DNA of 32,000 nucleotides from Candidatus Scalindua sp. Lineage in GTDB: Bacteria > Planctomycetota > Brocadiia > Brocadiales > Scalinduaceae. The notes under the pieces are model-generated. The model saw nothing but the letters and a program-made list of their open reading frames with translations. It made no database searches and was not told where the DNA came from. A program made the position numbers and the translations under genes. Where the stretch lies: assembly GCA_021777035.1 (NCBI GenBank), contig JAIQZR010000138.1, forward strand, positions 1-32,000. Reading direction: 5' to 3'. Positions 5,528-27,155 of the stretch are shown here, in pieces; positions within the stretch are counted from its first letter, which is position 1, and every line of letters begins with the position of its first letter.

Positions 5528-5947
5528 TTATTGTAAGGTGCTTTCTTTAAGGACTATATCTTGCTTGGGTGAGACCGCATGCAAAAGTTCATTAAATTTT
5601 TCAACGGAAGGAATAGATTTACCACGTTCGTATCTGGCAAAGGCATTTCGCGAAGAAGCGCCTATTCTTTCAGCTACCTGCGCTAAAGAGAGTCCGCTAA
5701 GTTCTCGTTTTCTTTGAAGAAGAATACTAACCAAGGTCCTTGTATCCTCAGAACCGATCTCGAAATATTCTTGTCGGTTTGAGTAAATTGACACATGAAA
5801 TCCTTCCTTATCAGCCATGGTCTCAATCAAATCCCCCACCATTTCAAAAGCCTCTTTCCTTGAATACCCTTGAGTCATTACATCAAGAATAGGTATTTCC
5901 GCCAACCAGAATTTGCCATTTTTGTAAATCTTTCCACTAAATCTCAT
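5528..5947 (-). CDS. hicB: HicB-family antitoxin with C-terminal XRE-type HTH
   Basis: The N-terminal HicB fold pattern is KNGKFWLAEIPILDVMTQGYSRKEAFEMVGDLIE. The C-terminal HTH is LSGLSLAQVAERIGASSRNAFARYERGKSIPS. It lies 3 nt downstream of hicA. Confidence 0.85.
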   Translation of the reverse strand: MRFSGKIYKNGKFWLAEIPILDVMTQGYSRKEAFEMVGDLIETMADKEGFHVSIYSNRQEYFEIGSEDTRTLVSILLQRKRELSGLSLAQVAERIGASSRNAFARYERGKSIPSVEKFNELLHAVSPKQDIVLKESTLQ

Positions 5948-5950
5948 ATA

Positions 5951-6142
5951 TTAACATCCTTTCTTTATTCTTCTAATAATGGCACGCGCAAGCATTTCAT
6001 TAATTTCAACGTGCCTTGGGACATATTCTTGATGCTCTCCATCAGTCCAGACATCATGTTTACGCCCATGCCTCAAAAACCACCATCCAAGCTTTCTAAG
6101 TGTATTTTCCAAAGCCTTACGTTTCATAGTTTTATTGTACAC
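5951..6142 (-). CDS. hicA: HicA-family mRNA interferase toxin
   Basis: MKRKALENTLRKLGWWFLRHGRKHDVWTDGEH...VPRH is typical of HicA/YcfA. The likely true start is the ATG at 6127 rather than 6142. Confidence 0.85.
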   Translation of the reverse strand: MYNKTMKRKALENTLRKLGWWFLRHGRKHDVWTDGEHQEYVPRHVEINEMLARAIIRRIKKGC

Positions 6143-6416: not shown

Positions 6417-6800
6417 ATGTATACAGGCATAGATATTATTGAGATCAGCAGGATAGAGAAGGTCTTTGGTTCACACAAAGACTTTCTTGGAAGGGTTTAT
6501 ACGTCTGATGAGGTGAAATATTGCCAAGCCAAAAAGAACTGTTATCAGCACTACGCAGTACGTTTTGCTTCAAAAGAGGCCGTACTCAAGGCGTTTGGAA
6601 CCGGTTTAAGAGACAGGATAAAGTGGACTGATATAGAAACGCTGAATGATGAACTTGGAAAGCCTTATGTAAATCTATACGGTAGAGCGAAAGAGATTGC
6701 AACAGAGAAAAATATCGGCGAAATTTCGGTTTCGTTATCACATTGTAAAGAATATGCAATTGCGCACGTATTATTAATACCTGAGAAATCTCATGAATAA
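6417..6800 (+). CDS. acpS: Holo-[acyl-carrier-protein] synthase (4'-phosphopantetheinyl transferase, AcpS type)
   Basis: 127 aa. Motifs: GIDIIEISRIEK..., FASKEAVLKAFGTG, GKPYV, SLSHCKEYAIAHVLL. Confidence 0.9.
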   Translation: MYTGIDIIEISRIEKVFGSHKDFLGRVYTSDEVKYCQAKKNCYQHYAVRFASKEAVLKAFGTGLRDRIKWTDIETLNDELGKPYVNLYGRAKEIATEKNIGEISVSLSHCKEYAIAHVLLIPEKSHE

Positions 6801-6809
6801 GAGAAAAAA

Positions 6810-8285
6810 ATGAAAAAACTAATTCTCATAAACCCTCACCCGATAGGTAATGTTGGCGAGGAAAATGTTTCAGTACTAAATCAGATGCCGGTAAATCTGG
6901 GATATTTGAAAGCGTTAACTCCTGGCAACTGGGAGGTGGACATAATAGATGAAACCCAGGAACTGTCGGTAGATGAAAAAGGTGAAAATGTCTGCTTTGA
7001 CAAGACGAATGTCGCCCTGGTTGGAATAACGTCCGTAAGTTATCAGGCAAACAGGGCATATCAGATTGCTACAGCATGCAAAAAAAGTGGAATACCAGTA
7101 ATAATGGGAGGAGTACACGCAACAAGCTATCCGGAAGAGGCAGCCAAATATGTTGACTCTGTGGTAATAAGAGAAGCGGTTCCTATATGGGAACAGATAA
7201 TTTCTGATTTCGAAAACAATGAGCTCAAGCCAACATATGACGGAGGCTTGACTCCTATGGAAACATACAAGAACCTTCTGCCAGATAGAAAGTTTTTGAC
7301 GGACAAGTATAAATACCGATACTCCGGCATAATTACAACTGCAGGCTGCCCGTTCAGTTGTGAGTTCTGCTCCGTTCCACAGTTCCAGGGAAGAAAATAC
7401 AGAGAGAGGCCTGTAGATGATGTTCTCAATGAGCTTGAGGCAATTAAAGGGCAGTATAGAGGCCTCATCCTGACAGATGAAAATTTCTACGGCCACAGCA
7501 AAAAGTCGTATGAAAGAGTCAGAACCCTTTTTAAAGGAATGGTCGATAGAGGTATTTACCAGAATTGGTTTGGGTTTACCTCATTAAACATCTATCAAGA
7601 TGATGAAACGTTGGACTATATGGCAAAGAGTGGATGTGTGGGTGTGCTCATTGGCATTGAATCTATAAATGAAGATGCATTAAAATCAATGAATAAAGGT
7701 GTTAATCTCCGTATAACAATAGATAAATACAAGGAAGCAATAAAGAATATACGGAAGCATGGCCTTGCTGTCTGGGGAACTATGGTATTCGGAAACGACA
7801 ATGATACACCAGATACATTTAAAGATGTAGTTGATTTTATATTGGATGCTAAGATAGACATAATGACCTGTGGTATATTGTGCCCATTTATCAATACACC
7901 ATTACAACAGAGGCTTGATAGAGACAACAGGCTGTTCAGAACTAACTTTCCTGAAGACTGGATTTATTACACATCACATCACTTAACGTATGTTTTGTCT
8001 AAGCTCTCACTTCAGGAATTTATTGATGGCATAGAGTATGTTTATAACAACATATATTCGACCGAAGTAATCAGGAAAAAGTTCAGAGAAGCAAAAGATG
8101 AACTCAACAATCTCAATGCCGCAATGTTTGCGTTCAGGGTCAATCTAGACTGGCAGGATGTATACAAACATCTGTTAGAAAACCTGAGAGAGCTGCAAGC
8201 TTCGGGAGATTATGAAAAGGCCCTGGAACGTTACGAAACACTGAAAAACCAGAAAAACCTGGACATGGCAAATACTAAGATTTAG
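6810..8285 (+). CDS. B12-binding-domain radical SAM enzyme (class B; BchE/HpnP-like)
   Basis: N-terminal cobalamin-binding-like segment VALVGITSVSYQANRAYQIATACKKSGIPVIMGGVHATSYPEE. CxxxCxxC cluster motif GCPFSCEFC, with Cys codons at 7347-7349, 7359-7361 and 7368-7370. The start is 9 nt after the acpS stop. Confidence 0.88.
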   Translation: MKKLILINPHPIGNVGEENVSVLNQMPVNLGYLKALTPGNWEVDIIDETQELSVDEKGENVCFDKTNVALVGITSVSYQANRAYQIATACKKSGIPVIMGGVHATSYPEEAAKYVDSVVIREAVPIWEQIISDFENNELKPTYDGGLTPMETYKNLLPDRKFLTDKYKYRYSGIITTAGCPFSCEFCSVPQFQGRKYRERPVDDVLNELEAIKGQYRGLILTDENFYGHSKKSYERVRTLFKGMVDRGIYQNWFGFTSLNIYQDDETLDYMAKSGCVGVLIGIESINEDALKSMNKGVNLRITIDKYKEAIKNIRKHGLAVWGTMVFGNDNDTPDTFKDVVDFILDAKIDIMTCGILCPFINTPLQQRLDRDNRLFRTNFPEDWIYYTSHHLTYVLSKLSLQEFIDGIEYVYNNIYSTEVIRKKFREAKDELNNLNAAMFAFRVNLDWQDVYKHLLENLRELQASGDYEKALERYETLKNQKNLDMANTKI

Positions 8286-8325
8286 GTTATTGCTTAGATT
8301 GTTTCTCAAAAAAGAAGTCAAAAAG

Positions 8326-8407
8326 CAAATCCCCCCTCCCCGGACAAACTGTGCCGAGGACTTTACTCCCCTTTAGTCAAAGGAGAATAAGGGGGGATTT
8401 GTTTTTT
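8326..8407 (+). terminator. Terminator-like structure: 11-bp stem closing a 54-nt interior, followed by T6
   Basis: CAAATCCCCCC (8326-8336) pairs with GGGGGGATTTG (8391-8401), followed by TTTTTT (8402-8407). It lies between the radical SAM gene and the KS gene. Confidence 0.5.
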
Positions 8408-8478
8408 GTAAAATATGGCTAAAGTACGTTGGGTACTGGAAACCCCTGTGTTTTTTGATTTTTCACAAAGGATTAAAT

Positions 8479-9687
8479 ATGCCTAGAGTTGTTGTCACCG
8501 GTTTAGGATTAGTAATCGCTAATGGTATTGGTGTTACAAATGCGTGGAATGCCCTCATGAATGGCGAAGATGGCACTGCAGAGTTAAGATCCTTTGACAC
8601 ATCACAATATAAAGTACATCGTGCGTGCGAGGTAAAAGGTTTCGAAGTTGATACTGTCTTTGAAAACGAAACTACGGCAAACACAATACACAAATATACA
8701 TACACTGCTGCAAAAGAGGCGTTGGAAGATAGTGGTCTGAGTGATATTACAGAACGCAACAGAGAAAGATTTGGTATTGCAATCGGGACTCTTGCCGGAG
8801 AACTGCCTCCGTTTGAATACCTGTTACGCAACACACCTGAAGATAAAGCCAACGGCTTTGATATGGGTGTTGCTCTGACATATCCACCATCTTCTATTAC
8901 CACACTGCTCTCTGAAGATTTTGGATTTGAAGGGCCTAACATGGTATCACTAAATGCCTGCTCTTCAGGCAACCACGCTATCGCCTGGGCATTAGACCTT
9001 TTATACGAAGGAAAAGTTGATGTAATGCTGGTAGGCGGTGGTGAACTTATCCCACAAACAGAGTTTACGCATTTTCATAATCTGAAGGCGCTGGCACCTG
9101 AAAAGTGCCAGCCATTTGATAAAGAGAGAAAAGGTCTGATAATAGGAGAAGGTGCAGGAATAATGGTGTTAGAGACACTGGCTTCCGCTTCTAAAAGAGA
9201 TGCTAAAATTTATGCTGAATTAAAAGGCTATGGCATGAGCTGTGACGGACACCATATGACGGCCCCACATCCTGAAGGGGCAGGCGCAGTAGTGGCGATG
9301 TCAAATGCACTTTCCATGGCTAAAATGTCTTACAAAGACGTGGATTACATCAATGCGCATGGAACAGGGACTCCTTTAAATGACAGAATGGAGACCATGG
9401 CCATAAAGTCTGTGTTTAAAGAGCGTGCAAAGAGAATTCCAGTTAGCTCTATTAAATCTATGATAGGCCATACAATGGGTGCGGCCAGTGCAATAGAATC
9501 TGTGGTTAGTTGCCTGGCAATTAAAAACAACGAGGTTCCACCCACCATACACTATGAGGCACCTGATCCTGAGTGTGATCTGGATTATGTGCCAAATAAA
9601 GGACGCAAAACTGAAGTCAACTGTGTTATAAACAACTCATTTGCATTTGGCGGAAATAATGTCACGAATATTTTTAGTAGATTATAG
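8479..9687 (+). CDS. Beta-ketoacyl-ACP synthase II-like condensing enzyme (FabF family, catalytic triad intact)
   Basis: Active-site Cys in NACSSGNHA (TGC at 8959-8961). His in DGHHMTAP and NAHGTGTPLND. Also KSMIGHTMGAASAIE and NSFAFGGNN. The preferred start is MPRVVVTGLG at 8479, with AAAGGA upstream; the track ORF starts at 8455 with TTG. Confidence 0.9.
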   Translation: MPRVVVTGLGLVIANGIGVTNAWNALMNGEDGTAELRSFDTSQYKVHRACEVKGFEVDTVFENETTANTIHKYTYTAAKEALEDSGLSDITERNRERFGIAIGTLAGELPPFEYLLRNTPEDKANGFDMGVALTYPPSSITTLLSEDFGFEGPNMVSLNACSSGNHAIAWALDLLYEGKVDVMLVGGGELIPQTEFTHFHNLKALAPEKCQPFDKERKGLIIGEGAGIMVLETLASASKRDAKIYAELKGYGMSCDGHHMTAPHPEGAGAVVAMSNALSMAKMSYKDVDYINAHGTGTPLNDRMETMAIKSVFKERAKRIPVSSIKSMIGHTMGAASAIESVVSCLAIKNNEVPPTIHYEAPDPECDLDYVPNKGRKTEVNCVINNSFAFGGNNVTNIFSRL

Positions 9688-9735
9688 AGAAAAAGTATAT
9701 AGCCACCAAGGCCCTAAGACACAAAGTAAAAATAA

Positions 9736-10128
9736 ATGCACTTTAAACCACTTTCTACAAGACAGGAAGGAATAGCAAAGAAAATTGTTGACGCAGCATA
9801 TTGTGTGCATAAGGAATTGGGTTCTGGTTTACTTGAAAAAGTGTATGAAGCTTGTTTTTGTCACGAGCTTAAAAAAAGGGATCTTTCCTATAGGAGACAG
9901 GTAGAAATTCCAATTGTGTATGACGGTATAACTTTAGAAGAGGGGCTAAGATTAGATGTATTGGTTGAGGATCTTATCATTTGTGAACTTAAGGCAGTTG
10001 ATAATATGAATCCTGTTTGGGAAGCACAGGTATTAAGCCATTTAAAGCTGGCAGACAAACGTTTAGGCTTCCTTATTAATTTTAATGAAAGATACGTAAA
10101 AGATGGTATCAGGCGTATAATTCTTTAA
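9736..10128 (+). CDS. GxxExxY family protein (PD-(D/E)XK-like), inserted between the two KS genes
   Basis: 130 aa. The defining motif is GSGLLEKVYE (G-x2-E-x2-Y). Further matches: PIVYDG, LDVLVEDLIICELKAV, GFLINFN. Confidence 0.85.
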   Translation: MHFKPLSTRQEGIAKKIVDAAYCVHKELGSGLLEKVYEACFCHELKKRDLSYRRQVEIPIVYDGITLEEGLRLDVLVEDLIICELKAVDNMNPVWEAQVLSHLKLADKRLGFLINFNERYVKDGIRRIIL

Positions 10129-10158
10129 TTTTTTAGTGTCTTAGTGGCAAAAAAATAG

Positions 10159-11388
10159 ATGAATAAAAGGGCCGTAATTACTGGTATTGGAGTTGTGTCT
10201 CCGTTAGGTATCGGGCATCAGGATTTCTGGAATAACCTGGTTTCAGGCAGTTCCTCTATAGCGCCAATAGAGTGCCTTGATCTATCAAAGTATGAATGTA
10301 AAAACGGAGCAGAAGTTAAGGGGCTAAACCCGGAAGAGTTTTTAGGACGTAAAGGTTTAAGGTATCTTAACAAAGGGACTAAATTCCTGGGATCCAGCGC
10401 GAAACTGGCGGTAGATGACGCAAGACTCGAAATAGATGAAGAGCTGTCAAACCATACCGGGATCCTCATCGGCACTTCCCTTGGAAATTTCTCACAGACC
10501 ACAGATTATTTTCACGACATCATCATGGAAGGCCCATCAGAACTATCACCTATGCAGAGCTACGATGTCGCCCTGAACTCTTCCGTAAACTACGTCTCAG
10601 TATTTTTCAAGATGAAGAGTTTCGCCAGGACTATCTCCTCAGGCTTTACATCAGGTACCGATGCGATTGGAAATGCCGTTAAACTTGTACAGAATGGAAA
10701 AGCAAAAGTAATCATAGCCGGTGGAGTCGAGCAGATCTCATTGGATCTTTATATGATTTTTTATCTGAGAAAGATGCTGGCTGGAACTAATGATACCGGA
10801 AACGAGATCAGCATGCCCTTTGACAAAAGAAGAAATGGTTTTATTATGAGTGAAGGCAGTTATGTTTTCGTAGTGGAAGAGTATGACCACGCCTTAAATC
10901 GAGGAGCAAGAATATACGGTGAAATTTCCGGCTATGGCAGCCTCTTTTCTGGCAGCAGGAAAAGCGATACTGAAAACAGAATTAAAAAAGCCGGTAACAC
11001 AATGAAATTATGTATCGATGATGCGGGGATATCCCCAGACGACATAGATTTGATTAACGCAAACGGAAATTCCGGCAAGATGTCAGACCTCATAGAATCA
11101 AAGGCTATCAAAGGGTTGTTTGGAAAGAGAGGCGAAGAGATCCCTGTTCACGCCGTCAAATCAACCTTAGGAGAGAGTTACGGTGCATCCGGGGCAGCAC
11201 AGACAGTATCCGCTTTGCTTTCCATAAACAATGGATTGGTACCCCCTACCATTAATTACGAAGAAAAAGATCCTGAATGCAATCTGAATATTGTTGATGC
11301 AAAGCTCGAAAAGGATATCAATACAGTGCTCATTAATTCGTTTGATTTATCGGGAAACAACTCTTGCCTGGTTGTTAAGAAGGCATAG
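10159..11388 (+). CDS. Ketosynthase homologue lacking the Cys-His-His triad (chain-length-factor / KS-beta-like partner)
   Basis: The thiolase/KS fold is conserved throughout (VITGIGVVSPLG, IIAGGVE, PFDKRRNGFIMSEG, VPPTINYEEKDPEC, INSFDLSGNN). Hand alignment to E. coli FabF gives Cys->Phe (GFTSG; TTT at 10645-10647), His->Arg (GSRKSD) and His->Asn (INANGNSG). Confidence 0.85.
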   Translation: MNKRAVITGIGVVSPLGIGHQDFWNNLVSGSSSIAPIECLDLSKYECKNGAEVKGLNPEEFLGRKGLRYLNKGTKFLGSSAKLAVDDARLEIDEELSNHTGILIGTSLGNFSQTTDYFHDIIMEGPSELSPMQSYDVALNSSVNYVSVFFKMKSFARTISSGFTSGTDAIGNAVKLVQNGKAKVIIAGGVEQISLDLYMIFYLRKMLAGTNDTGNEISMPFDKRRNGFIMSEGSYVFVVEEYDHALNRGARIYGEISGYGSLFSGSRKSDTENRIKKAGNTMKLCIDDAGISPDDIDLINANGNSGKMSDLIESKAIKGLFGKRGEEIPVHAVKSTLGESYGASGAAQTVSALLSINNGLVPPTINYEEKDPECNLNIVDAKLEKDINTVLINSFDLSGNNSCLVVKKA

Positions 11389-11756
11389 AATCTACTAAAT
11401 CAGCTTTTAAACATAATATTGGAATAAATAATCCGGCACATTTCTCCCGACACCATTCTCGGGGTTTGAGATTATGAAGCGGTCAATACAATATTCAAAT
11501 TGCAGAAATATGGCCGTATTCTTATCAGGAGTACTATGTACATTCCAATTCCTACAATTTGTCAATCTTGCACTTGCTTTTGTAATCACTTTTGTTCATA
11601 ATGCTAGATGTAGGCTTAGGTAGGTTTGCGTTTTTAGCACTTGATAGATTGCCTAACTTGGACATGTAAGTAACTTTTCAGTATTTTGAAAAATCACTAA
11701 AAAAAGTGCAGAATGTCGAGTCTGAATAAGAAAAATGTAGGGGCTGTTTCCCAAAC

Positions 11757-11807
11757 AGTCTTTATTTGTACGGCTCGTTTTCTAAACGAGCCGTACAAAT
11801 AAAGACT
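11757..11807. repeat. Perfect 24-bp inverted repeat (hairpin with 3-nt loop) immediately upstream of the reductase gene
   Basis: AGTCTTTATTTGTACGGCTCGTTT (11757-11780) is the exact reverse complement of AAACGAGCCGTACAAATAAAGACT (11784-11807). A second small hairpin, CTGTTT-CCC-AAACAG (11744-11758), overlaps its 5' edge. Confidence 0.8.
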
Positions 11808-11822
11808 CTCTCTAAAAACAAT

Positions 11823-13850
11823 ATGAGTAAATTATTTACACCAATAAAAATTTGTAATTTAGAGATCAAGAACCGACTGGCCATGTCAGCAATGGATCTC
11901 GGCTTTACCTCAAATGGTTCTATAAACAATCGGTTTATAGATTTTTATGTAGAACGTGCTCGCGGAGGTGTAGGGTTAATTGTAGTGGGCGGATGCTATC
12001 CGGAAATGACCGGCAAGGTTTGGAAGAGCATAATTGGCCTGGACAAAGATGAATTTATTCCGGGTTTAAAGAAGCTAACCGATACGATACACAAATATGA
12101 TGTTAAGATTGCAGCACAAATACTTCACGGAGGGAGAAGCGCATCTTCATTTTTTTCAAAAACCCACCCAGTATCACCATCAAGCCTTTCACATATCAAC
12201 ATAAAGCAGAAACCACACGCCCTGACCATACCTGAAATAAAGAAAGTAATAGATGGCTATGTTACTGCCACAATAAGGGTAAAGAAGGGAGGGTTTGATG
12301 CAGTAGAGATACACGGCGGCATGGGCTATCTTATCAACCAGTTTCTTTCAAGAGCAACTAACAAGAGAAAAGATAGATATGGTGGCAGTCTCAAGAACAG
12401 GATAAGATTTGCGAAAGAGATAGTTGTAGCCATAAAGAAAAAAGTGGGGAAAAAATATCCTGTAATCTTCCGCTTATCGGGTGAAGATTTTGTAGATGAT
12501 GGGCTCAAAATAGATGAAAGTATTGAGATTGCGAAAGAACTGGAGAAAGCAGGTGTGGATGCATTCAATGTTTCACCCGGCTGGCATGAGAGCCGAACTC
12601 CCATAATGCTTATGGCTATTCCAAGAATGTCATATATCTTTCTGTCTGAAAAGATTAAAGACAATGTAAATGTACCTGTTATCGGATCCGTGAGAATAAA
12701 TGACTTGGCCCTGGCAGAGGAAGTTATTGATAATGACCGTTCAGACATTGTTTCAATAGGAAGGCCCTTAATAGCAGACCCGGAATTACCAAAAAAATAT
12801 AAGAAAAAGCAGTTTGATGATATCAGAAGATGCATTGCCTGTAACCAAGGTTGTTTTGATTCCTTGTTAGGTTTCAAATCTGTCAGCTGTTTATATAATG
12901 TCAGAGCTGGCAAAGAGAGTGAATTCAAGATCAGGAAGGCGAAGAAAAAGAAAAAAGTAATGGTTATTGGCGGCGGACCGGGAGGTATGGAGGCAGCAAG
13001 AATTGCCGCTTTAAGAGGTCATGACGTACATTTATTTGAGAAAGCAGATGTGCTTGGTGGTCAATTAAGATATGCTTATATACCGCCGGGAAGGGAAGAG
13101 ATAGAAAATGTTATCATATTTCTGGAAAATCAGATAAGGAAATTAAATGTAAATATACAGCTTTGCAAAAAAGTAGATACAAAAACGATAAAGGATTTAA
13201 AGCCGGACGTTGTAATCGCAGCGACAGGGGGGAAGCCTCTTATTCCTGAGATTTCTGGTGTTAAAGAGAAGAATGTTGTTGTAGCTGAAGACGTATTTGA
13301 CAATAAAGTAAAGGTTGGTCAAGACGTCGTAATTATAGGCGGAGGCACTATCGGTTGCGAAATCGCCCTTCACACGGCAAAGATGGGGGCAATGGAACCG
13401 GAAGTTGCCTGCTTTCTTTTAAAAAACAGAGTTATTAGTGGAGATGAAGCCATAGGACTTACTTCAAAGGGAAAACGAAATATCACTATTCTGGAAATGA
13501 AAAATAAAATTGGTGGAAAGTTTGGCATCTCAACCAGATGGGTTATCATGAAGCAGGTGCAGGATGCCGGCATTAACAGTATTACCGGAATAAAAGTAAA
13601 AAATATATCGACTAAAGCTAAATCAAAAAAAGAGAAGGATAAAGTCTGCGTAACTTTTGAAAAGGAAAATAAAAATACGAAGATTTATGCGGATACGGTT
13701 ATCATCGCCGCAGGATACAAATCCAACCAGGATCTTACCAGAAAATTAAACGGTACGATTAACGAACTATATAAAATAGGAGATTGCGTAGAGGTCAGGA
13801 CGGCACTCGAAGCGATCCATGAAGGGTTTGAAGTAGGATTGAAGATTTAA
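11823..13850 (+). CDS. FadH-like 2,4-dienoyl-CoA reductase / Old-Yellow-Enzyme-family flavoprotein with Fe-S and FAD/NAD(P) domains
   Basis: N-terminal OYE TIM-barrel (LKNRLAMSAMD, HGGMGYLINQFLS, RYGGSL). 4Fe-4S motif RRCIACNQGCFD. Two Rossmann motifs, VMVIGGGPGGMEAA and VVIIGGGTIGCEIA. The preferred start is MSKLFTPI at 11823; the track ORF begins at a TTG at 11766 inside the hairpin. Confidence 0.85.
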   Translation: MSKLFTPIKICNLEIKNRLAMSAMDLGFTSNGSINNRFIDFYVERARGGVGLIVVGGCYPEMTGKVWKSIIGLDKDEFIPGLKKLTDTIHKYDVKIAAQILHGGRSASSFFSKTHPVSPSSLSHINIKQKPHALTIPEIKKVIDGYVTATIRVKKGGFDAVEIHGGMGYLINQFLSRATNKRKDRYGGSLKNRIRFAKEIVVAIKKKVGKKYPVIFRLSGEDFVDDGLKIDESIEIAKELEKAGVDAFNVSPGWHESRTPIMLMAIPRMSYIFLSEKIKDNVNVPVIGSVRINDLALAEEVIDNDRSDIVSIGRPLIADPELPKKYKKKQFDDIRRCIACNQGCFDSLLGFKSVSCLYNVRAGKESEFKIRKAKKKKKVMVIGGGPGGMEAARIAALRGHDVHLFEKADVLGGQLRYAYIPPGREEIENVIIFLENQIRKLNVNIQLCKKVDTKTIKDLKPDVVIAATGGKPLIPEISGVKEKNVVVAEDVFDNKVKVGQDVVIIGGGTIGCEIALHTAKMGAMEPEVACFLLKNRVISGDEAIGLTSKGKRNITILEMKNKIGGKFGISTRWVIMKQVQDAGINSITGIKVKNISTKAKSKKEKDKVCVTFEKENKNTKIYADTVIIAAGYKSNQDLTRKLNGTINELYKIGDCVEVRTALEAIHEGFEVGLKI

Positions 13851-13854
13851 TATT

Positions 13855-14673
13855 ATGAAAGATATTCGAATGAATCGTGGCGACAACTCCGGTTATGACC
13901 ATCTGGAATTTGAAGAGATAGCGTCTGATAATGGTAAGAAAATAGGAATTATTTACTTGAACAAACCTGACAGGAACTCTTTGGGTTCCTGGTTACTGGA
14001 CGCTATATATGAGAAAATGGATCAGTACGAAAATGATGAAAAGGTTGGAGCCATTATTATTGCCAGTAAGTTAAGAGGGGTATTTTGTGACGGTGTAGAC
14101 CGCGAAGAGTTATTTGGGTCATGGATTTCAGATCTGGTAGCAAAGAAAGACTACGAACGGTTCCATCGTTCCTACGAGATGCTTGTTGAAATGGAAAATT
14201 GCCAGAAACCGGTTATTGCCGCAATTAATGGCATTGCAATAGGAGCAGGGATAGAACTTGCAATGTTATGTGATCTGCGTATTGCATCAGAACTCGCATT
14301 TTTCAATCTGCCTGAAGCAAAGCCGGAACTTGGCATTATTCCGGCGCTGGGCACAACACAACGTTTACCGCGGCTAATTGGCCATGCACGTGCAAAAGAG
14401 ATGCTGTTTCTTGGCAAGATGGTTCGTGCAAAAACCGCATTGGAATGGGGTTTAGTCAACCAAATTGTTCCACACAAAGAGGTCTTGAATCAAGCCATAG
14501 AAATGGCAAAAGTGCTGCTGGAGAGAGAGACTGGAGTACTAATAGAAATGAAAAAATGTGTCAATTTTGCAGTTGAAAATGATATTACAAAAGGTCTGGA
14601 ATACGAGGTCAGTGTATTCGCTAAAATGATGCGACTGAAACTGGCGGAAAAGGAGATTACCGTCGAATCGTAA
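13855..14673 (+). CDS. Enoyl-CoA hydratase/isomerase (crotonase) family protein
   Basis: Crotonase signature AAINGIAIGAGIELAMLCDLRIAS, plus PEAKPELGIIPALGTTQRLPRLIG. The start is 4 nt after the upstream stop. Confidence 0.88.
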   Translation: MKDIRMNRGDNSGYDHLEFEEIASDNGKKIGIIYLNKPDRNSLGSWLLDAIYEKMDQYENDEKVGAIIIASKLRGVFCDGVDREELFGSWISDLVAKKDYERFHRSYEMLVEMENCQKPVIAAINGIAIGAGIELAMLCDLRIASELAFFNLPEAKPELGIIPALGTTQRLPRLIGHARAKEMLFLGKMVRAKTALEWGLVNQIVPHKEVLNQAIEMAKVLLERETGVLIEMKKCVNFAVENDITKGLEYEVSVFAKMMRLKLAEKEITVES

Positions 14674-14750
14674 AATCCATAGAGCAGAGCATTATAATCG
14701 ATAACAACAAATTCTTGTTTTTTTAATAATGATTTCCCGGAGGAAATACT

Positions 14751-15494
14751 ATGAGTATGAGTAACAAGACGGCGATAGTAACAGGTGGTACAAGAGGTAT
14801 AGGAAAAGCGATAGTACTTGAACTGGCAAAAAACGGATGCAATGTTGCCTTTAACTATAGTAAGAGTGATGACCTGGCAAATGAACTCGTAAAGGAGATA
14901 GAAGCACTTGGAGTCAAGGCCATGGCAAAGAAGGCGGATGTATCCGATTTTGAAAGTGCTAAAGATATGATTAAAGAGGTTAAGGATGAGTTTGGTCAGA
15001 TCGATTATCTGGTTAACAATGCTGGAATAACGAGAGACAAACTGCTTGCCCTGATGAAAGAAAATGACTGGGATGACGTGATTAATATAAACCTGAAAAG
15101 TGTGTATAATTTTTCTAAGGCGGTAATCATGACCATGATCAAGCAGAAAAGAGGAAACATACTCAACATAACCTCTGTCAGCGGAATTGCGGGCGTTGCA
15201 GGCCAGACCAACTACTCAGCTTCCAAAGCGGGAATGATTGGCTTCACAAAGGCCCTTGCAAAGGAAGTTGGTAAGGCAAAAATTAATGTTAACGCCATTG
15301 CGTGCGGATTTATAGAAACAGACATGACTTCAGAGCTTCCTGAAGAGTACAAGCAGAAGATGATAGATATGACTGCACTAAAGCGATTCGGCACAACTGA
15401 CGACGTAGCAAAAACAGCCAGATTTTTACTATCAGACGACGCAAAATATATTACCGGACAGGTATTGTCTATCGATGGAGGATTGGCGTTATAA
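14751..15494 (+). CDS. fabG: 3-oxoacyl-ACP reductase (SDR family, FabG-like)
   Basis: VTGGTRGIGKA (TGxxxGxG), NNAGITRD, catalytic YSASKAG (YxxxK), GQVLSIDGG. GGAGG Shine-Dalgarno upstream. Confidence 0.9.
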   Translation: MSMSNKTAIVTGGTRGIGKAIVLELAKNGCNVAFNYSKSDDLANELVKEIEALGVKAMAKKADVSDFESAKDMIKEVKDEFGQIDYLVNNAGITRDKLLALMKENDWDDVININLKSVYNFSKAVIMTMIKQKRGNILNITSVSGIAGVAGQTNYSASKAGMIGFTKALAKEVGKAKINVNAIACGFIETDMTSELPEEYKQKMIDMTALKRFGTTDDVAKTARFLLSDDAKYITGQVLSIDGGLAL

Positions 15495-15550
15495 ATACAT
15501 ATAATTGTTGCGAGTTGCAGGTTTAATAATATGAAAGGAGTTTATACAAA

Positions 15551-15862
15551 ATGCTCTTCTTATTAAAAGTTCAAATAAAAAAGATACCTGATATGCCTGT
15601 GAAGGATTTCCTGGGATTTGTAGTCAAGGAGTGGGAATATTTTATCAGGATGAGAAAAAGAGGCAGGATCCTTGCAGGCGGGAAACTGGCCGGTAGCAGA
15701 GGTGCTGCCGCCATTATTGAAGTTGATTCCAATGAAGACCTTGATCAACTCGTATCAAATCTACCACTCTTTCCATTTTTCACTGACATAGAAATAACCC
15801 CACTCGTCCCTACAGACAAAGCGTTGCTCGATGTTAAACGCATCCATTCACTTATGAAGTAA
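15551..15862 (+). CDS. Muconolactone delta-isomerase-like small protein
   Basis: 103 aa. The N-terminus MLFLLKV..., the central GGKLAGSRGAAAIIEVDSNEDLDQLVSNLPLFPF and the length fit the MIase (ferredoxin-like) family. AAAGGAG Shine-Dalgarno upstream. This is a recalled pattern match and is less certain than its neighbours. Confidence 0.6.
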   Translation: MLFLLKVQIKKIPDMPVKDFLGFVVKEWEYFIRMRKRGRILAGGKLAGSRGAAAIIEVDSNEDLDQLVSNLPLFPFFTDIEITPLVPTDKALLDVKRIHSLMK

Positions 15863-15949
15863 GAAATACATATGGCTAAACTTTCAGACTTTGTAACCAA
15901 TGGTTCGAAAAAAAAATAACCTGTCGATCAGGTGATATTGCACAAAATT

Positions 15950-15993
15950 ATAGTAGGACGGATGGCAATGCCAACCATCCTACTATTTATTTA
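15950..15993. terminator. Putative bidirectional terminator between convergent genes
   Basis: Imperfect hairpin ATAGTAGGACGGATGG ... CCATCCTACTAT (about 12 bp with a 4-nt bulge), flanked by A/T runs on both sides. Confidence 0.4.
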
Positions 15994-16086
15994 TAAGCAA
16001 TTTTTTGAGGTTTATTTCTAACATCATCCCGAAAATCAAAACAAAGCTATTACTGAAACGTTATCAGACTAAAAATTGAAATTACA

Positions 16087-17040
16087 TCAATCGTTAGTAG
16101 CATCCAGTAAAAAATCGTAACAGTTATCTCTGATTTCAAGATTGGCTCGTTGCTTCATTGCATTACGAGGATGCTGATTAAGGTGGCCACTGATTCCATA
16201 AATGTCATTAAATCCCCACTCAATCTCCTCACGCAACGGAACAAAACTTTCCTGTATTGCCTTGTATATCGGCCTGACATCAAATTTTGGATTTTTCAGG
16301 AAGTTAAGGAGGAGTTCTATATTACAGTTTCCGGCCCCACGGCCAATGCCGTTTATGGTCGCGTCAAGCAGATTCACACCATCTATAATAGCCTGCTGGG
16401 TATTTGAAAAGGCCAGTTGCTGGTTGTTGTGGGCATGGAATCCGAGTTCCTTATTCGGAGCATGCTCTTTATAAAGTTGAAGATAGCCGGTTACCTGTTC
16501 TGAATAGAATGCTCCAAAGCTGTCCACAAGGTAGAGATAGTCAACCTCACCTGCATTATTCACCTGCTGCAGGGCTTCAATCAGTTCAGTTTCTATTGCA
16601 GCGGAACAAGCCATAATGTTAATAGTAGTTTGATAACCCAGATCCTTACTGCGTTTTACCAGATCCAGCCCTTTGTCAATATCTGCAACATAACAGGCGG
16701 TACGTACCATCCCGATAACACTCTGTTCTGCTGGAAGCAATGCGGAAATATCTACCCTGTCTACATCATACATTACGGCCAGTACCGGAGGGTTCTCGCA
16801 CTCATGGGAATTAACAATATATTTGATATCATCCTCATCACAAAAATTCCATTTACCGTATTTTTCCCGTGTATATTCATCACTCACACATAGCTTCTTA
16901 CCAATCTCCATTATATCAATACCGCTATCACAGGCGGCACGATAAGCCGCTTTAACAAAATCGTCCTTGAAGTGGTAATTATTGATAAGACCTCCATCTC
17001 TGACTGTACAATCTAAAACCTTTATTTTCTCTCGAAACAT
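16087..17040 (-). CDS. HMGL-like aldolase catalytic-domain protein (pyruvate carboxyltransferase / DmpG-like fold)
   Basis: N-terminal LDCTVRDGG motif. The metal-binding segment is FHAHNNQQLAFSNTQQAIIDGVNLLDATINGIGRGAGNCNIELLL. Confidence 0.75.
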   Translation of the reverse strand: MFREKIKVLDCTVRDGGLINNYHFKDDFVKAAYRAACDSGIDIMEIGKKLCVSDEYTREKYGKWNFCDEDDIKYIVNSHECENPPVLAVMYDVDRVDISALLPAEQSVIGMVRTACYVADIDKGLDLVKRSKDLGYQTTINIMACSAAIETELIEALQQVNNAGEVDYLYLVDSFGAFYSEQVTGYLQLYKEHAPNKELGFHAHNNQQLAFSNTQQAIIDGVNLLDATINGIGRGAGNCNIELLLNFLKNPKFDVRPIYKAIQESFVPLREEIEWGFNDIYGISGHLNQHPRNAMKQRANLEIRDNCYDFLLDATND

Positions 17041-17160
17041 CTTCTCCGCTCCCGGTAAAATACCTTATATTTACTTCTGAAAAATTTAAACACTACATAC
17101 TAACGCAAACTGGCATGAAAAAACAAGTGAGAAATGTGAGAAATGTGAATACTTTGTCTA

Positions 17161-17179
17161 TTCAATAATATTTATTGAA
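17161..17179. promoter_or_regulatory. 19-bp perfect palindrome TTCAATAA-TAT-TTATTGAA in a divergent promoter region (candidate operator)
   Basis: The 8-bp arms are exact reverse complements. It lies between the divergent HMGL-like (-) and ykgJ-like (+) genes. A tandem GTGAGAAAT x2 (+GTGA) lies at 17127-17148. Confidence 0.45.
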
Positions 17180-17254
17180 ATTTGTAAAACTCCTGCTAAC
17201 ATCACCTACTTAATAAAACAAGATATATACCACAGGAAAGGGCCCGTTTTAATC

Positions 17255-17707
17255 ATGAGTAGCTCTAATTCAAGCAAGAATAATCGCACAAAAGGACATA
17301 AACAGAAGTGGTACAAAGACGGTTTAAGATTTGAGTGTCAGAGATGTGGTAGTTGTTGTAGAGGTGAACCGGGTGTTGTCTGGATGAGCAAAAAGGAAAC
17401 AAAAAACACCTCGATGTCCCTGGGTATTTCAACAGATCTGTTTACGAAAGATTATGTAAGGTTGATTAACGGGAGAATCAGTCTACTGGAGCATGATAAC
17501 GGAGACTGCGTCATGTATGACAAAGGTTGCAAGATTTATGAGACCAGGCCGAGTCAATGTAAAACATTCCCGTTCTGGAACTCTAATTTGGGAAATAGGA
17601 GTGAGTGGGAAGAGCAGAAGAAGACCTGTCCAGGTATTGGCAAAGGGAAATTACATACAGTTGAGGAGATCATAAACCGTTTAGAACCTGAATTGAGCGA
17701 TTTATGA
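17255..17707 (+). CDS. YkgJ-family cysteine-cluster (CxxCxxCC) protein
   Basis: FECQRCGSCCRGEPGVV plus downstream Cys residues (DNGDCVMYDKGCKIYETRPSQCKTFPF). Confidence 0.8.
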   Translation: MSSSNSSKNNRTKGHKQKWYKDGLRFECQRCGSCCRGEPGVVWMSKKETKNTSMSLGISTDLFTKDYVRLINGRISLLEHDNGDCVMYDKGCKIYETRPSQCKTFPFWNSNLGNRSEWEEQKKTCPGIGKGKLHTVEEIINRLEPELSDL

Positions 17708-18378
17708 TTAATGAAAATAGTAGAGCAACGGAGGATGCCTGGCCTTGTCTGAGAAAAAGAATCGGGGTGCTTGGCGGCACATTCAATCCGATACATATGG
17801 GGCATTTGAACATGGCAGAAGAGGTTTGCCGACATCATCGTTTGTCGAAAATCATTTTTATACCAGCATACATCCCTCCGCATAAATATGTAAAGAATTT
17901 GACTGAGGCGCATCATCGTTATGAAATGATCAAAGCTGCCATTCATCAAAAAAACAGGCTTGGTGTTTTTGAAGTTTCCGATCTTGAAATCAAACGTGAA
18001 GGTAAATCATATACTATAGACACTGTAGAAGAAATTTTGCACCACTATGGCGAAGAGAGTGAAATATTTTTGATTATGGGGGCTGACTCATTAAATGAAC
18101 TGGAATTATGGAAAAATATTAGAAGGCTTTCTCAACTTTGTCACTTTGTAATTGTAAATAGGCCAGGTGCTAAAGCAGTAGCTTCTACCAGACTCGTAGA
18201 AATAATAGGCAGTAATAGTATATCTGACATGGAAAAATTGAGAATAGAGATATCCCCAGTTGATATCTCATCTACAAATATAAGGAAGCGACTGAGCGAT
18301 GGCGATGAAGTCAAAAACCTTGTGCCTGAATGTGTTGAAACATATATAAAAGAACACGGTTTGTATTTACCTTCCTGA
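17704..18378 (+). CDS. nadD: Nicotinate-nucleotide adenylyltransferase
   Basis: GVLGGTFNPIHMGH (HxGH-type nucleotidyltransferase motif) and the C-terminal ISSTNIR motif. It has a 4-nt ATGA overlap with the upstream gene. Confidence 0.88.
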   Translation: MINENSRATEDAWPCLRKRIGVLGGTFNPIHMGHLNMAEEVCRHHRLSKIIFIPAYIPPHKYVKNLTEAHHRYEMIKAAIHQKNRLGVFEVSDLEIKREGKSYTIDTVEEILHHYGEESEIFLIMGADSLNELELWKNIRRLSQLCHFVIVNRPGAKAVASTRLVEIIGSNSISDMEKLRIEISPVDISSTNIRKRLSDGDEVKNLVPECVETYIKEHGLYLPS

Positions 18379-18561
18379 ATGATCCGGTCAGACAGGTGTT
18401 GTGATGTAAAAATAATGTAACCGTTTGCGGGATACCAGCTAAACCCTATTGCAAAAGATCACAACCCCATATAATCCCCCTTTTTTAAGGGAGTTATAAA
18501 AACCTAACGAATAATACATTGCCTGGTTTCCCAGGTTACGTGAACGGTTACAAAAAAACAC

Positions 18562-20773: not shown

Positions 20774-21417
20774 CATACCAAAGAGGAATGGAGTAGTATC
20801 AAAGTCGAAGATCCAAGCCGCAAGCATATGAGATTGAAGATTCATGAATCAGAAATACTGCTCAACAAAACAACAAGATATTTCAGACAAATTGCCGTAT
20901 CAGGCAATGGTCATGAAAAAGAGGCATTTATCTTAACCAATGATAGAAAGCGTACTGCCTCACAAATAATCAGACAATATGGAAAACGTTGGAATATAGA
21001 AAAAGGAATTTCAGAGCAAATCATTATCATCCGGTTAGGTTTTTGCGAGTACGGCTTTTTTTATACTCGAATCGTCAGCAGAGACGTAGGGCGAGGCTTT
21101 AGCCTTGCATTTATGCACAAAAGCAAACCTAAAGGATTGCCCTACGTGTTACACGCAAAAACCTAACCGGATGATGCTGAGAGCAAATAGAGTTTTTTCA
21201 CCTTAACAAACTCTCATCGTCCATAGTGGTAAAGGTGGATTTTAATTTAACTATGACTATAGCGGCACATAATTTCTACCGCGTAATTGCTATGGAGCTT
21301 GCTGGGTTTGAGAATGAAACATCAGGAAGTTTAAGCAGTAAGTTTTTTGACAATGGGGGTCAATTCAAAATTGAGAACGGATCCAATGTCATTGGCAAGT
21401 TGATTTTAAGCACCTAA
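20774..21417 (+). pseudogene. C-terminal remnant of a DDE transposase (IS4/IS5-superfamily type), interrupted by a MITE
   Basis: The frame is open from 20774 with no N-terminal part. It carries the YGKRWNIE (Y-x2-R-x3-E) motif. Removing 21022-21188 restores a continuous frame, ...GISEQIEFFHLNKLSSSIVVKVDFNLTMTIAAHNFYRVIA..., which joins track ORFs 20828-21166 and 21226-21417. Confidence 0.8.
21022..21179. mobile_element. 158-bp MITE-like insertion with 26-bp terminal inverted repeats and 9-bp target-site duplication
   Basis: The TIRs are CATTATCATCCGGTTAGGTTTTTGCG (21022-21047) and CGCAAAAACCTAACCGGATGATGCTG (21154-21179), matching at 24 of 26 positions. The flanking direct repeat AGAGCAAAT occurs at 21013-21021 and 21180-21188. 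Internal palindromes are ACGTAGGGC/GCCCTACGT and AGGCT-TT-AGCCT. Confidence 0.85.
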
Positions 21418-26689: not shown

Positions 26690-27155
26690 TATATTTAACT
26701 CTTTTTTATCAAATGTAGTAAATGCGTTTACAGAATTCAATCTGCACGTTGATGTACAGTTACCGTTATGCAAATTCTAATTGCGGTAAAAGCAGATACA
26801 ATAATATGGTATTTGATTATAGGCCACAAGAAAAAACATTAAAACAAGAGTATCTTAACAACTCAAATAAAGTACGTATGGCATATTATTAATTGGTAAT
26901 GACGCTAATGATTTGATATAAAACATGGTTTCGATTCTATTCTCAGATCCAGGTGCAAAAGGCGAATGCTTAATAAAGCAGAAGGGCTATTTAACTCGTC
27001 AGACTAATAACAAGCGAGCAAACAGCCCTTCATAAAATTGTTTTTGCCTGGATAGCCGGATCTATAGTAGAATAAAATATCTAAAATATTGCTCTCCACA
27101 ACAAAATTATCCCCAGGAGATGACACTAGTTAAGTTGTCCGGGTAAGGAGGAAAA

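Follow-up and report, generated by a model that had tools for sequence, protein, structure and literature searches.

Introduction

How the ladderane lipids of anammox bacteria are made has been an open question since the lipids were described in 2002. The closest described relatives of the locus reported here are two gene clusters of Kuenenia. The first, kuste2802-2805, was proposed as a ladderane candidate in which Kuste2803 is a B12-binding S-adenosylmethionine (SAM) radical enzyme (Rattray 2009, Biol Direct 4:8, PMC2649909); in the same study kuste2802 is the sole acpS listed for Kuenenia (Table 1) and Kuste2805 is a non-canonical ketosynthase (KS) with the residues Phe163/Asn298/Asn300/Cys302/Lys328/Glu333 (Table 2). 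These genes have also been described as "a complete cluster" of an acyl carrier protein (ACP) synthase, a SAM radical enzyme, FabF and a non-canonical FabB (Javidpour 2016, PLoS One 11:e0151087, PMC4790861). The second, Cluster I (kuste3603-3608), is anammox-restricted (bioRxiv 10.64898/2026.05.19.726425; Dietl 2023 JBC). Its ketosynthases amxFabF2 and amxFabFmut are inactive alone; they co-purify and, as a pair, decarboxylate malonyl-amxACP, forming a heterodimer that resembles the pairing of a KS with a chain-length factor (CLF) in polyketide synthases and favours short chains (PDB 9s5h; bioRxiv 10.64898/2026.05.19.726425). The nearest structural homologue of amxFabF2 is the ishigamide polyene KS, and the KS pair and FabZ of Cluster I are reported to prefer C6-C8 chains. 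Here we analyse a window of 32,000 nucleotides from Candidatus Scalindua sp. (assembly GCA_021777035.1, contig JAIQZR010000138.1, positions 1 to 32,000), with a G+C content of ~40%, in which positions 6417-15862 hold what is almost certainly the orthologue of kuste2802-2805, followed by four further genes with predicted functions in acyl-chain chemistry. We propose that this is an operon for lipid biosynthesis, specific to anammox bacteria, in the form that it takes in Candidatus Scalindua, and give the functional model as a whole a probability of about 0.5-0.6.

Relation to the described clusters

Domain calls came from Pfam and NCBIfam profile searches, with Pfam run on all ORFs (open reading frames) of the window of at least 80 aa. 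An earlier note, made from the letters of this DNA alone, had described nine co-directional ORFs at this locus as one pathway cluster, and the profile searches recovered every one of its domain assignments (Table 1). Eight of the nine belong to the cluster as we describe it; the ninth encodes a nuclease-superfamily protein of the GxxExxY type and, being missing from most orthologous loci, has to be counted as an insertion outside the pathway.

The first four genes encode AcpS, a class B radical SAM enzyme, a FabF-like ketosynthase (KS1) and a ketosynthase homologue that lacks the catalytic triad (KS2). The shared gene set and order, together with the residue pattern of KS2, identify them with near certainty as the Scalindua orthologue of kuste2802-2805: the four genes and their order recur in Kuenenia, with the same substitutions in its second ketosynthase, and the Kuenenia hertensis orthologues of the core are 57-78% identical. 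The earlier note's comparison with the ladderane candidates of anammox bacteria that combine paralogues of the type II system for making fatty acids (FAS-II) with radical SAM enzymes was therefore well placed. The core cluster has been known since 2009, and the Scalindua copy is another member of it. The two differ in that Kuenenia has no FadH, crotonase, FabG or muconolactone isomerase-like (MIase-like) gene within 10 kb (locus L049), whereas Scalindua adds these four; the window copy further differs from kuste2802-2805 in its GxxExxY insertion, in a 434-bp spacer behind KS2 and in a Gly at KS2 position 302.

An identification of the locus with Cluster I itself was rejected, as amxACP, amxFabZ and the phytoene-desaturase homologue of that cluster have no counterpart in the window. 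The composition of Cluster I was checked in Kuenenia (L089), where it comprises amxACP, amxFabZ, two ketosynthases, the phytoene-desaturase homologue and a B12-radical SAM enzyme, and is followed by an E3-like gene (11649-13073). Both clusters are anammox-restricted, and both contain, as paralogues, an active KS, a triad-less KS and a B12-radical SAM enzyme, the radical SAM enzyme of the window being 56% identical to Kuste3608. Beyond this shared set, Cluster I has its ACP, FabZ and desaturase homologue, whereas the window has AcpS, the FadH-like enzyme, the crotonase, FabG and the muconolactone isomerase (MLI)-fold protein; KS2 carries Phe at the catalytic Cys position where amxFabFmut has Val or Thr, and the KS pairs fall into different subclades (96% and 99% bootstrap). 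Judged by sequence relationships, the window cluster and Cluster I share an anciently duplicated set of KS, dead KS and radical SAM enzyme. In one deep-branching Brocadiales-like MAG (metagenome-assembled genome CSMAG_693, 54% G+C; L055) the Cluster I radical SAM gene (72% identical to kuste3608) and desaturase gene (55%) lie at 15842-18536 (-), convergent with the window-type cluster and 1.3 kb past its MIase-like gene, which puts both ladderane candidates side by side in one genome; the locus ends before the remaining Cluster I genes.

After the anammox orthologues, KS2 is most closely related, at 36-40% identity, to triad-less ketosynthases (Phe/x/Glu, Lys kept) encoded beside an active KS and FabG in non-anammox Planctomycetia, Omnitrophota and Nitrospirota (L064-L077). 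These clusters resemble Cluster I and not the window: they have ACP and FabZ and often a phytoene-desaturase-like gene, their triad-less ketosynthases group with amxFabFmut (99% bootstrap), and they lack AcpS, radical SAM, FadH-like, crotonase and MIase-like genes. The sets of L064, L066, L070, L074, L076 and L077 consist of triad-less KS, FabG, ACP, FabZ, KS and a third KS, often with the desaturase-like gene. Many of these clusters adjoin lipoate-protein ligase and E3 genes, and in six non-anammox loci a dihydrolipoyl-dehydrogenase-like gene and a lipoate-protein ligase gene lie upstream of the Cluster I-like set; given the C6-C8 preference of the Cluster I enzymes, a link to octanoyl-ACP and lipoate supply is worth a look.

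A related set also occurs outside the recognised anammox orthologue group, in an unclassified Planctomycetota MAG, on a contig of 58.7% G+C (GCA_008501825.1, QQUA01000023.1, 8551-20363; L087). There, a B12-radical SAM enzyme (46%), a KS with intact triad (38%), a degenerate KS-like protein of 332 aa, FabG (46%) and three ORFs without a family are encoded on one strand, and a FabH-like gene, a ferredoxin gene and a MIase-like gene (50%) lie ~6 kb away. The FabH-ferredoxin-MIase trio recurs in a contig of 69% G+C rich in multihaem cytochromes (loci concerned, beside L087: L088; L090, 8547-10309).

The ketosynthase pair

Active-site residues were read from an alignment to Bacillus subtilis FabF and PDB 9s5h. 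The earlier note had called KS1 intact and KS2 triad-less; in agreement with this, KS1 keeps Cys, His, His and Lys, and in KS2 the Cys, His and His are replaced by Phe, Asn and Glu while the Lys is retained. The KS2 residues F/N/N/K/E reproduce the Phe163/Asn298/Asn300/Lys328/Glu333 pattern of Kuste2805; the remaining position, 302, is Cys in the Brocadiaceae orthologues and Gly in the window protein. The top PDB match of KS1 is amxFabF2 (9s5h_B, 405 bits, 46% identity; 46-47% over the amxFabF2 comparisons) and that of KS2 is amxFabFmut (9s5h_C, 306 bits, 38%). KS1 matches B. subtilis FabF at 302 bits and 41% identity. Against the fabF equivalog TIGR03150, with its cutoff of 493.75 bits, KS1 reaches 420.1 bits and KS2 339.5 bits, and the type II polyketide synthase (PKS) structures 1tqy and 6kxd are matched by the pair at 180-264 bits.

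Neighbour joining with 100 bootstraps gathers every triad-less KS homologue of the tree into a single clade (99%). Within it the 2805-type subclade, which includes KS2 (96%), has the degenerate KS-like protein of L087 as its sister, and the other subclade unites amxFabFmut with the non-anammox Phe/x/Glu proteins (99%). The active partners of the 2804-type, including KS1, form a clade of their own (100%) apart from B. subtilis FabF. When tested for orthology with the Kuenenia, Brocadia and Jettenia proteins, the 2804-type and 2805-type clades each received 100% support.

An active KS beside a homologue without the catalytic Cys is a feature of KS/CLF pairs, and the two genes are contiguous in orthologous loci, although split by the insertion in the window. 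Type II PKS pairs (actinorhodin, 1tqy; ishigamide Iga11/Iga12, 6kxd-f) likewise combine an active KS with an adjoining inactive homologue, a ketoreductase (KR) and a dehydrating enzyme; they differ in that KS2 does not have the CLF Gln, that the window encodes a crotonase and not a hot-dog dehydratase, that ACP, cyclase and tailoring genes are missing, and that a cobalamin radical SAM enzyme is present. The paralogy with amxFabF2 and amxFabFmut makes a heterodimer the best expectation for KS1 and KS2, and by this analogy we predict that KS1 and the catalytically dead KS2 would form a KS/CLF-like heterodimer with a shared substrate tunnel. The grouping of KS2 with amxFabFmut, the inactive subunit of the 9s5h heterodimer, likewise favours the KS/CLF-type logic put forward in the earlier note.

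Conservation of the gene order

Related loci were collected by scanning one genome per GTDB species with a five-sequence KS2 alignment as the query; the best 80 loci were kept, and the window proteins were compared with all loci by tblastn. KS2 identity drops stepwise. Scalinduaceae loci are at 72-89%; the remaining anammox genera (Brocadia, Jettenia, Kuenenia, Anammoxibacter, Loosdrechtia, Wunengus, Subterrananammoxibius and unnamed Brocadiales) follow at 54-60%; and non-anammox Planctomycetia, Blastocatellia, Nitrospirota, Omnitrophota and Selenomonadales reach at most 40%, in other gene contexts. Among these best 80 loci, KS2 orthologues of at least 54% identity occur in anammox genomes only, and the earlier note's test against organisms with ordinary lipids does not refute its proposal. 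For KS2, for the radical SAM enzyme and for the MIase-like protein alike, the closest matches come from Candidatus Scalindua (72-97% identity). No hydrazine synthase gene lies in the window, which thus gives no direct confirmation of anammox by itself.

The core order AcpS-radical SAM-KS1-KS2 is kept in 42 of the 45 anammox loci with enough upstream flank (15/15 in Scalinduaceae, 27/30 elsewhere), a conservation in related genomes that the earlier note had named as a check on its proposal. Because the same order recurs in dozens of genomes, the arrangement is not due to chance. Among Scalinduaceae loci with at least 5 kb of downstream sequence, the FadH-like, crotonase, FabG and MIase-like genes all lie 3' of KS2 in 20 out of 20. 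Outside this family, Jettenia ecosi (L042) has the full downstream set, and so does L051, where a 3.6-kb insert precedes it; FadH-FabG-MIase, without the crotonase, follow KS2 in the deep-branching loci L048 and L055, FadH with or without the crotonase does so in eight further loci, and in Brocadia pituitae (L062) a crotonase gene at 77% identity is directly 3' of KS2. In L084 the genes are detached from the core, with FabG (74%) and MIase (71%) still neighbours.

The spacing of these genes points the same way. Of 22 Scalinduaceae loci, 10 have nothing but the stop codon between KS1 and KS2, and in 13 the FadH gene adjoins or overlaps KS2 without a spacer; such packing in about half of the loci argues for a co-translated operon. 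The contiguity of the long form in three separate lineages suggests an ancestral arrangement that came apart later, in Brocadiaceae.

Enzymes encoded by the cluster

The partial NCBIfam matches of the radical SAM enzyme all lie far below the family cutoffs, and we therefore assign no reaction type. They include the PhpK family (104 bits, cutoff 600), the MCR glutamine C-methyltransferase and HpnR; BchE and HpnJ score similarly, and no curated NCBIfam cutoff is reached. The earlier note had called the enzyme BchE-type, which holds for the superfamily and fails for the family (TIGR02026, 87.4 bits against a cutoff of 481). Nor is it a member of TIGR04072 (rSAM_ladder_B12), at 76.2 bits against a cutoff of 360, which the radical SAM enzyme of Cluster I also misses (87 bits). 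Its orthologues, at 69-94% identity, are all from Brocadiales. AcpS exceeds its family cutoff; the carrier-priming role given to it in the earlier note need not be a dedicated one, as kuste2802 is the only phosphopantetheinyl transferase listed for Kuenenia.

The four downstream genes supply a complete set of enzymes for the beta-carbon, with a predicted ketoreductase (FabG), hydratase/dehydratase (crotonase) and ene-reductase (FadH-like). The FadH-like protein has the architecture of its family: an Oxidored_FMN TIM barrel, a 4Fe-4S Cys motif (CIACNQGC...C in the translation) and a FAD/NAD(P)H domain. Its top PDB matches are 2-naphthoyl-CoA reductase (6qkg, 377 bits) and, over the full length, E. 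coli 2,4-dienoyl-CoA reductase (1ps9, 374 bits). The crotonase is closest in the PDB to 3-hydroxypropionyl-CoA dehydratase and enoyl-CoA hydratases; across 15 orthologues neither the two catalytic Glu residues nor the motif LPEAKPEL varies. Scalindua crotonases form two groups with 60-66% mutual identity, against 75-95% for the neighbouring genes, and each of them is nearer to the crotonases of Brocadiaceae (67-78%) than to the other, with the catalytic residues unchanged; this split could reflect fast divergence or gene replacement. FabG passes the TIGR01830 equivalog for 3-oxoacyl-ACP reductase (324.2 bits, cutoff 297.75).

The AlphaFold2 model of the MIase-like protein (pLDDT, the predicted local distance difference test score, of 96) has as its top Foldseek matches the chloromuconolactone dehalogenase ClcF and muconolactone isomerase, at template modelling (TM) scores of 0.76-0.86 and a root-mean-square deviation of 1.4-1.6 A for the predicted model. 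Glu27, nearly invariant in 29 homologues, is the residue changed in the ClcF E27A substrate complex, which is present among the fold matches. The protein scores 39.4 bits against the muconolactone Delta-isomerase equivalog TIGR03221 (cutoff 130.6), so that it is not the equivalog, and no context of the beta-ketoadipate pathway was seen. Its family is narrow, with 82 matches, nearly all from Brocadiales; in two GC-rich outgroup contigs the gene sits beside a FabH-like gene and a ferredoxin gene.

ACP, FabD, FabH, FabZ/FabA and FabI are all missing from the window, by Pfam over all ORFs of at least 80 aa and by a scan for the ACP motif. The earlier note had listed these absences correctly; the degree of incompleteness that it drew from them was overstated, as the cluster has its own KR and plausible surrogates for the dehydratase (DH) and enoyl reductase (ER).

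Gene map, insertions and neighbourhood

The features of the locus are collected in Table 1. The start codon of KS1 is probably the ATG at 8479, and that of the FadH-like gene is most likely the ATG at 11823, which leaves the 434-bp spacer after KS2.

Table 1. Genes and spacers of the cluster in the Candidatus Scalindua window.
Feature	Position	Strand	Profile matches and motifs
acpS, holo-ACP synthase (kuste2802 orthologue)	6417..6800	+	PF01648 65.7 bits; TIGR00516 100 bits, cutoff 59.8
Class B (cobalamin-binding) radical SAM enzyme (kuste2803 orthologue)	6810..8285	+	PF02310 + PF04055; CxxxCxxC motif
KS1, FabF-like ketosynthase (kuste2804 orthologue)	8455..9687	+	Cys/His/His/Lys intact
GxxExxY / PD-(D/E)XK_3 gene, insertion	9736..10128	+	PF13366 134.5 bits; TIGR04256 139 bits
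KS2, triad-less ketosynthase homologue (kuste2805 orthologue)	10159..11388	+	Phe/Asn/Glu for Cys/His/His, Lys kept
KS2-FadH spacer, 434 bp	11389..11822	.	Perfect 24+24 nt palindrome at 11757-11807
FadH/NCR-type three-domain flavoenzyme	11823..13850 (ORF from 11766)	+	PF00724 247.5 bits + PF07992 103.9 bits
Crotonase-fold enoyl-thioester hydratase/dehydratase, predicted	13855..14673	+	PF00378 173.8 bits
FabG-type 3-oxoacyl-ACP reductase	14751..15494	+	TIGR01830 324.2 bits, cutoff 297.75
Muconolactone-isomerase-fold (MIase-like) protein, 103 aa, final cluster gene	15551..15862	+	PF02426 51.7 bits, threshold 26.7

A GxxExxY gene at the KS1-KS2 position is found only in the window and in L018 (2910-3299, 89% identical). 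A homologue (46%) lies between FadH and the crotonase gene in L023 (12265-12633), and the KS1-KS2 spacer of S. sediminis (L002, 9274-9765) holds a Y1_Tnp (IS200/RAYT-like) gene. The spacers of the operon attract selfish genes, and many other species have the same genes abutting. The palindrome in the KS2-FadH spacer is 100% complementary, with a 3-nt loop, and lies 16 nt before the FadH start codon; a smaller hairpin, CTGTTTcccAAACAG, precedes it. A similar two-hairpin motif occurs in the same spacer of S. japonica (L001, ~11318-11348) and L006 (~10789-10819), with changes on both arms, and other Scalindua species have different palindromes there that resemble repetitive extragenic palindromic elements. 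No part of the window, the palindrome included, matches an RNA family in Rfam.

Both boundaries of the cluster are marked by a change of neighbours. Immediately upstream of acpS lies a probable HicA/HicB toxin-antitoxin pair (5528-6142, -), in which one ORF, of 63 aa, matches HicA_toxin weakly (20 bits, under the cutoff) and the other encodes a 139-aa HTH_3 (helix-turn-helix) protein; the HTH gene is also upstream of the cluster in L060. In S. japonica and S. sediminis the upstream position is taken not by HicA/HicB but by MatE and metallo-beta-lactamase-fold genes, and these differences between Scalindua species set the upstream boundary. Downstream, genes for an HMGL-like aldolase (-), a CxxCxxCC protein and a cytidylyltransferase-like protein occupy 16087-18378; the trio is also 3' of the cluster in the close relatives L001, L005, L010, L015 and L016 and is missing there in more distant Scalindua, which places it beyond the downstream boundary.

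Elsewhere in the window, an AMP-binding enzyme of the acyl-CoA/acyl-ACP ligase type is encoded at 28446-29975 (-), 12.6 kb 3' of the cluster; acyl-CoA-ligase-like genes have been reported as syntenic with other candidate clusters (Rattray 2009, PMC2649909). The gene at 443-2767 (+) encodes a protein of 774 aa that combines an EVE domain with an McrB-like ATPase domain (AAA_5); this protein has weak PADLOC matches to PDC-S02 and to a type II restriction enzyme model and is possibly a modification-dependent restriction or defence protein; a 29+29-nt inverted repeat (hairpin 2840-2900) lies 3' of its gene. A 31-nt inverted repeat at 21021-21180, 90% complementary with its arms 98 nt apart, overlaps the end of ORF 20828-21166, for which no family match was found, and the 738-aa ORF 24557-26773 (-) has no Pfam match.

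Discussion

Our comparison suggests a model for the activity of the Scalindua operon as one half of an anammox-specific acyl-chain pathway. A KS1/KS2 heterodimer would decarboxylate malonyl-ACP and condense it onto an ACP-bound chain, the carrier being amxACP, encoded elsewhere and primed by AcpS. FabG would reduce the beta-keto group, the crotonase would dehydrate the product to an enoyl thioester, and the FadH-like enzyme may reduce the resulting conjugated enoyl or dienoyl thioester. The MLI-fold protein could shift a double bond through Glu-mediated proton transfer, and the cobalamin radical SAM enzyme may form a C-C bond or add a methyl group at an unactivated carbon. A KR and an ER are missing from Cluster I, and an ACP from the window cluster, which suggests that the two are complementary halves of one pathway, with the ladderane chain as its most plausible product. 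Four parts of this model are inferred: the heterodimer, the substrates, the step order and the link to ladderanes.

A more specific version, in which the two modules split the ladderane work, is rather doubtful in our judgement: Cluster I would make the short linear part, and the window cluster would build and cyclise the ring-bearing part, with the KR, crotonase, dienoyl-type reductase and MLI-fold isomerase generating and repositioning conjugated double bonds that the radical SAM enzyme would close into cyclobutanes. If this division of labour were true, the eight-gene Scalindua operon and Cluster I together would be the minimal set for ladderane reconstitution.

Several observations weigh against a dedicated lipid-biosynthetic operon. 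When kuste2802-2805 were expressed in E. coli, no new fatty acids appeared and the proteins were mostly insoluble (Javidpour 2016, PMC4790861), and in the literature as of 2026 no experiment, in vitro or genetic, ties any cluster to ladderanes or any enzyme to cyclobutane formation; the earlier note had likewise described the pathway as without biochemical proof, and no chemistry is shown in that literature. The presence of AcpS in the cluster may be organisational only. KS2 has Phe and not the classical type II PKS CLF Gln at the Cys position, and the characterised enzymes closest to the FadH-like protein and to the crotonase use CoA thioesters, not ACP thioesters. In the window itself, KS1 and KS2 are 471 bp apart, with the 393-bp GxxExxY gene between them, and a second gap of 434 bp separates KS2 from FadH. 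In 17 of 28 non-Scalindua anammox loci, including several of Brocadia and that of Kuenenia hertensis, all four downstream genes are missing from the 10 kb around the core, which implies that the fusion is not obligatory. The related set of L087 suggests that a module of this type is older or wider than the recognised anammox bacteria.

These points bear most directly on the alternative that survives best, although we consider it unlikely: that only the four-gene core is biosynthetic, and that the FadH-like, crotonase, FabG and MLI-fold genes are a separate CoA-dependent beta-oxidation or auxiliary module, merely adjacent in Scalindua, whose task would be the remodelling, shortening or breakdown of acyl-CoAs with unsaturated or alicyclic chains. 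The naphthoyl- and dienoyl-CoA reductases, hydroxypropionyl-CoA dehydratase and enoyl-CoA hydratases that are the closest characterised relatives fit such a module, as do the detachment of the four genes from the core in most Brocadiaceae and Kuenenia hertensis, the location of FabG and MIase elsewhere in L084, and the spacer before FadH in the window. That spacer contains promoter-like hexamers, but scans for promoter-like and terminator-like sequences were no richer than in shuffled sequence and are not used here as evidence. The abutting or overlapping KS2 and FadH genes of Scalinduaceae and the order kept in all 20 of their loci speak for a single unit, and the same contiguous order in Jettenia and in deep-branching lineages suggests that it is ancestral. 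Moreover, FabG exceeds the cutoff for an ACP-dependent reductase, thiolase, acyl-CoA dehydrogenase and CoA ligase genes were not found within the cluster by Pfam, and the MIase-like family is nearly confined to anammox bacteria, with a linkage to a FabH-like gene in the outgroup contigs that is biosynthetic in character.

A different anammox lipid is a less probable product again, and one that we regard as quite unlikely. Methyltransferases account for most of the class B radical SAM enzymes characterised so far, and 10-methylhexadecanoic acid is present in anammox bacteria, so that the operon could be pictured as making mid-chain methyl-branched fatty acids, with the radical SAM enzyme as a cobalamin-dependent C-methyltransferase acting on an acyl-ACP made by KS1 and KS2. 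The methyltransferases PhpK, MCR glutamine C-methyltransferase and HpnR are among its best partial matches, a related set of radical SAM enzyme, KS, KS-like protein and FabG is found outside the recognised anammox group in L087, and heterologous expression of the core yielded no ladderanes. Those matches, however, are far under their cutoffs and are equalled by the non-methyltransferases BchE and HpnJ; the enzyme is a close paralogue of one in Cluster I, the cluster most widely linked to ladderanes; and a dienoyl reductase and an isomerase are not required for simple methyl branches.

That the locus is a type II PKS or an aryl-polyene-like pigment cluster is very improbable. The pairing of a KS with a triad-less homologue, together with a KR and an enzyme of dehydratase-like type, would suit such a cluster, as would the position of the ishigamide polyene KS as the nearest structural homologue of amxFabF2 and the 264-bit match of KS1 to 6kxd. 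The classical forms of both are contradicted by the Phe of KS2, by the anammox-only range of the orthologues, by the B12-radical SAM enzyme, which is foreign to those systems, and by the missing partner genes: neither ACP nor cyclase/aromatase, thioesterase, LolA-like or exporter genes were found in the Pfam scan of the window. Barely credible is a housekeeping FAS-II locus with KS1 as the cell's FabF, the outcome that the earlier note had named beforehand as fatal to its proposal; the intact triad, fabF as the top NCBIfam match of KS1 and the housekeeping type of AcpS and FabG are outweighed by a score below the fabF cutoff, by the place of KS1 in the anammox-specific 2804-type clade, by a KS2 that is dead by its residues, and by the canonical FabF, ACP, FabD and FabH that Kuenenia encodes in kustd1386-1389, a canonical FabF being named separately in Scalindua as well.

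With these alternatives weighed, an anammox-specific lipid-biosynthetic operon remains our preferred reading. Of its elements, the four-gene extension, the pairwise paralogy with Cluster I and the adjacency in L055 have no prior description in the searchable literature (subscription-only papers not covered), and a literature search on ladderanes and dienoyl-CoA reductase returned only an unrelated review. Cluster I has been the focus of experimental work to date, yet it lacks a ketoreductase or enoyl reductase, and the second, less-studied cluster is as widely conserved in anammox genomes as KS2 itself. The complementary gene content of the two suggests why kuste2802-2805 alone, or Cluster I alone, gave nothing. 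Although they are no proof of a ladderane role, the eight genes described here and the six of Cluster I form a concrete gene set for reconstitution. Without answering the question of how anammox bacteria make ladderanes, the extension, the paralogy and the adjacency thus sharpen it into a defined reconstitution experiment.

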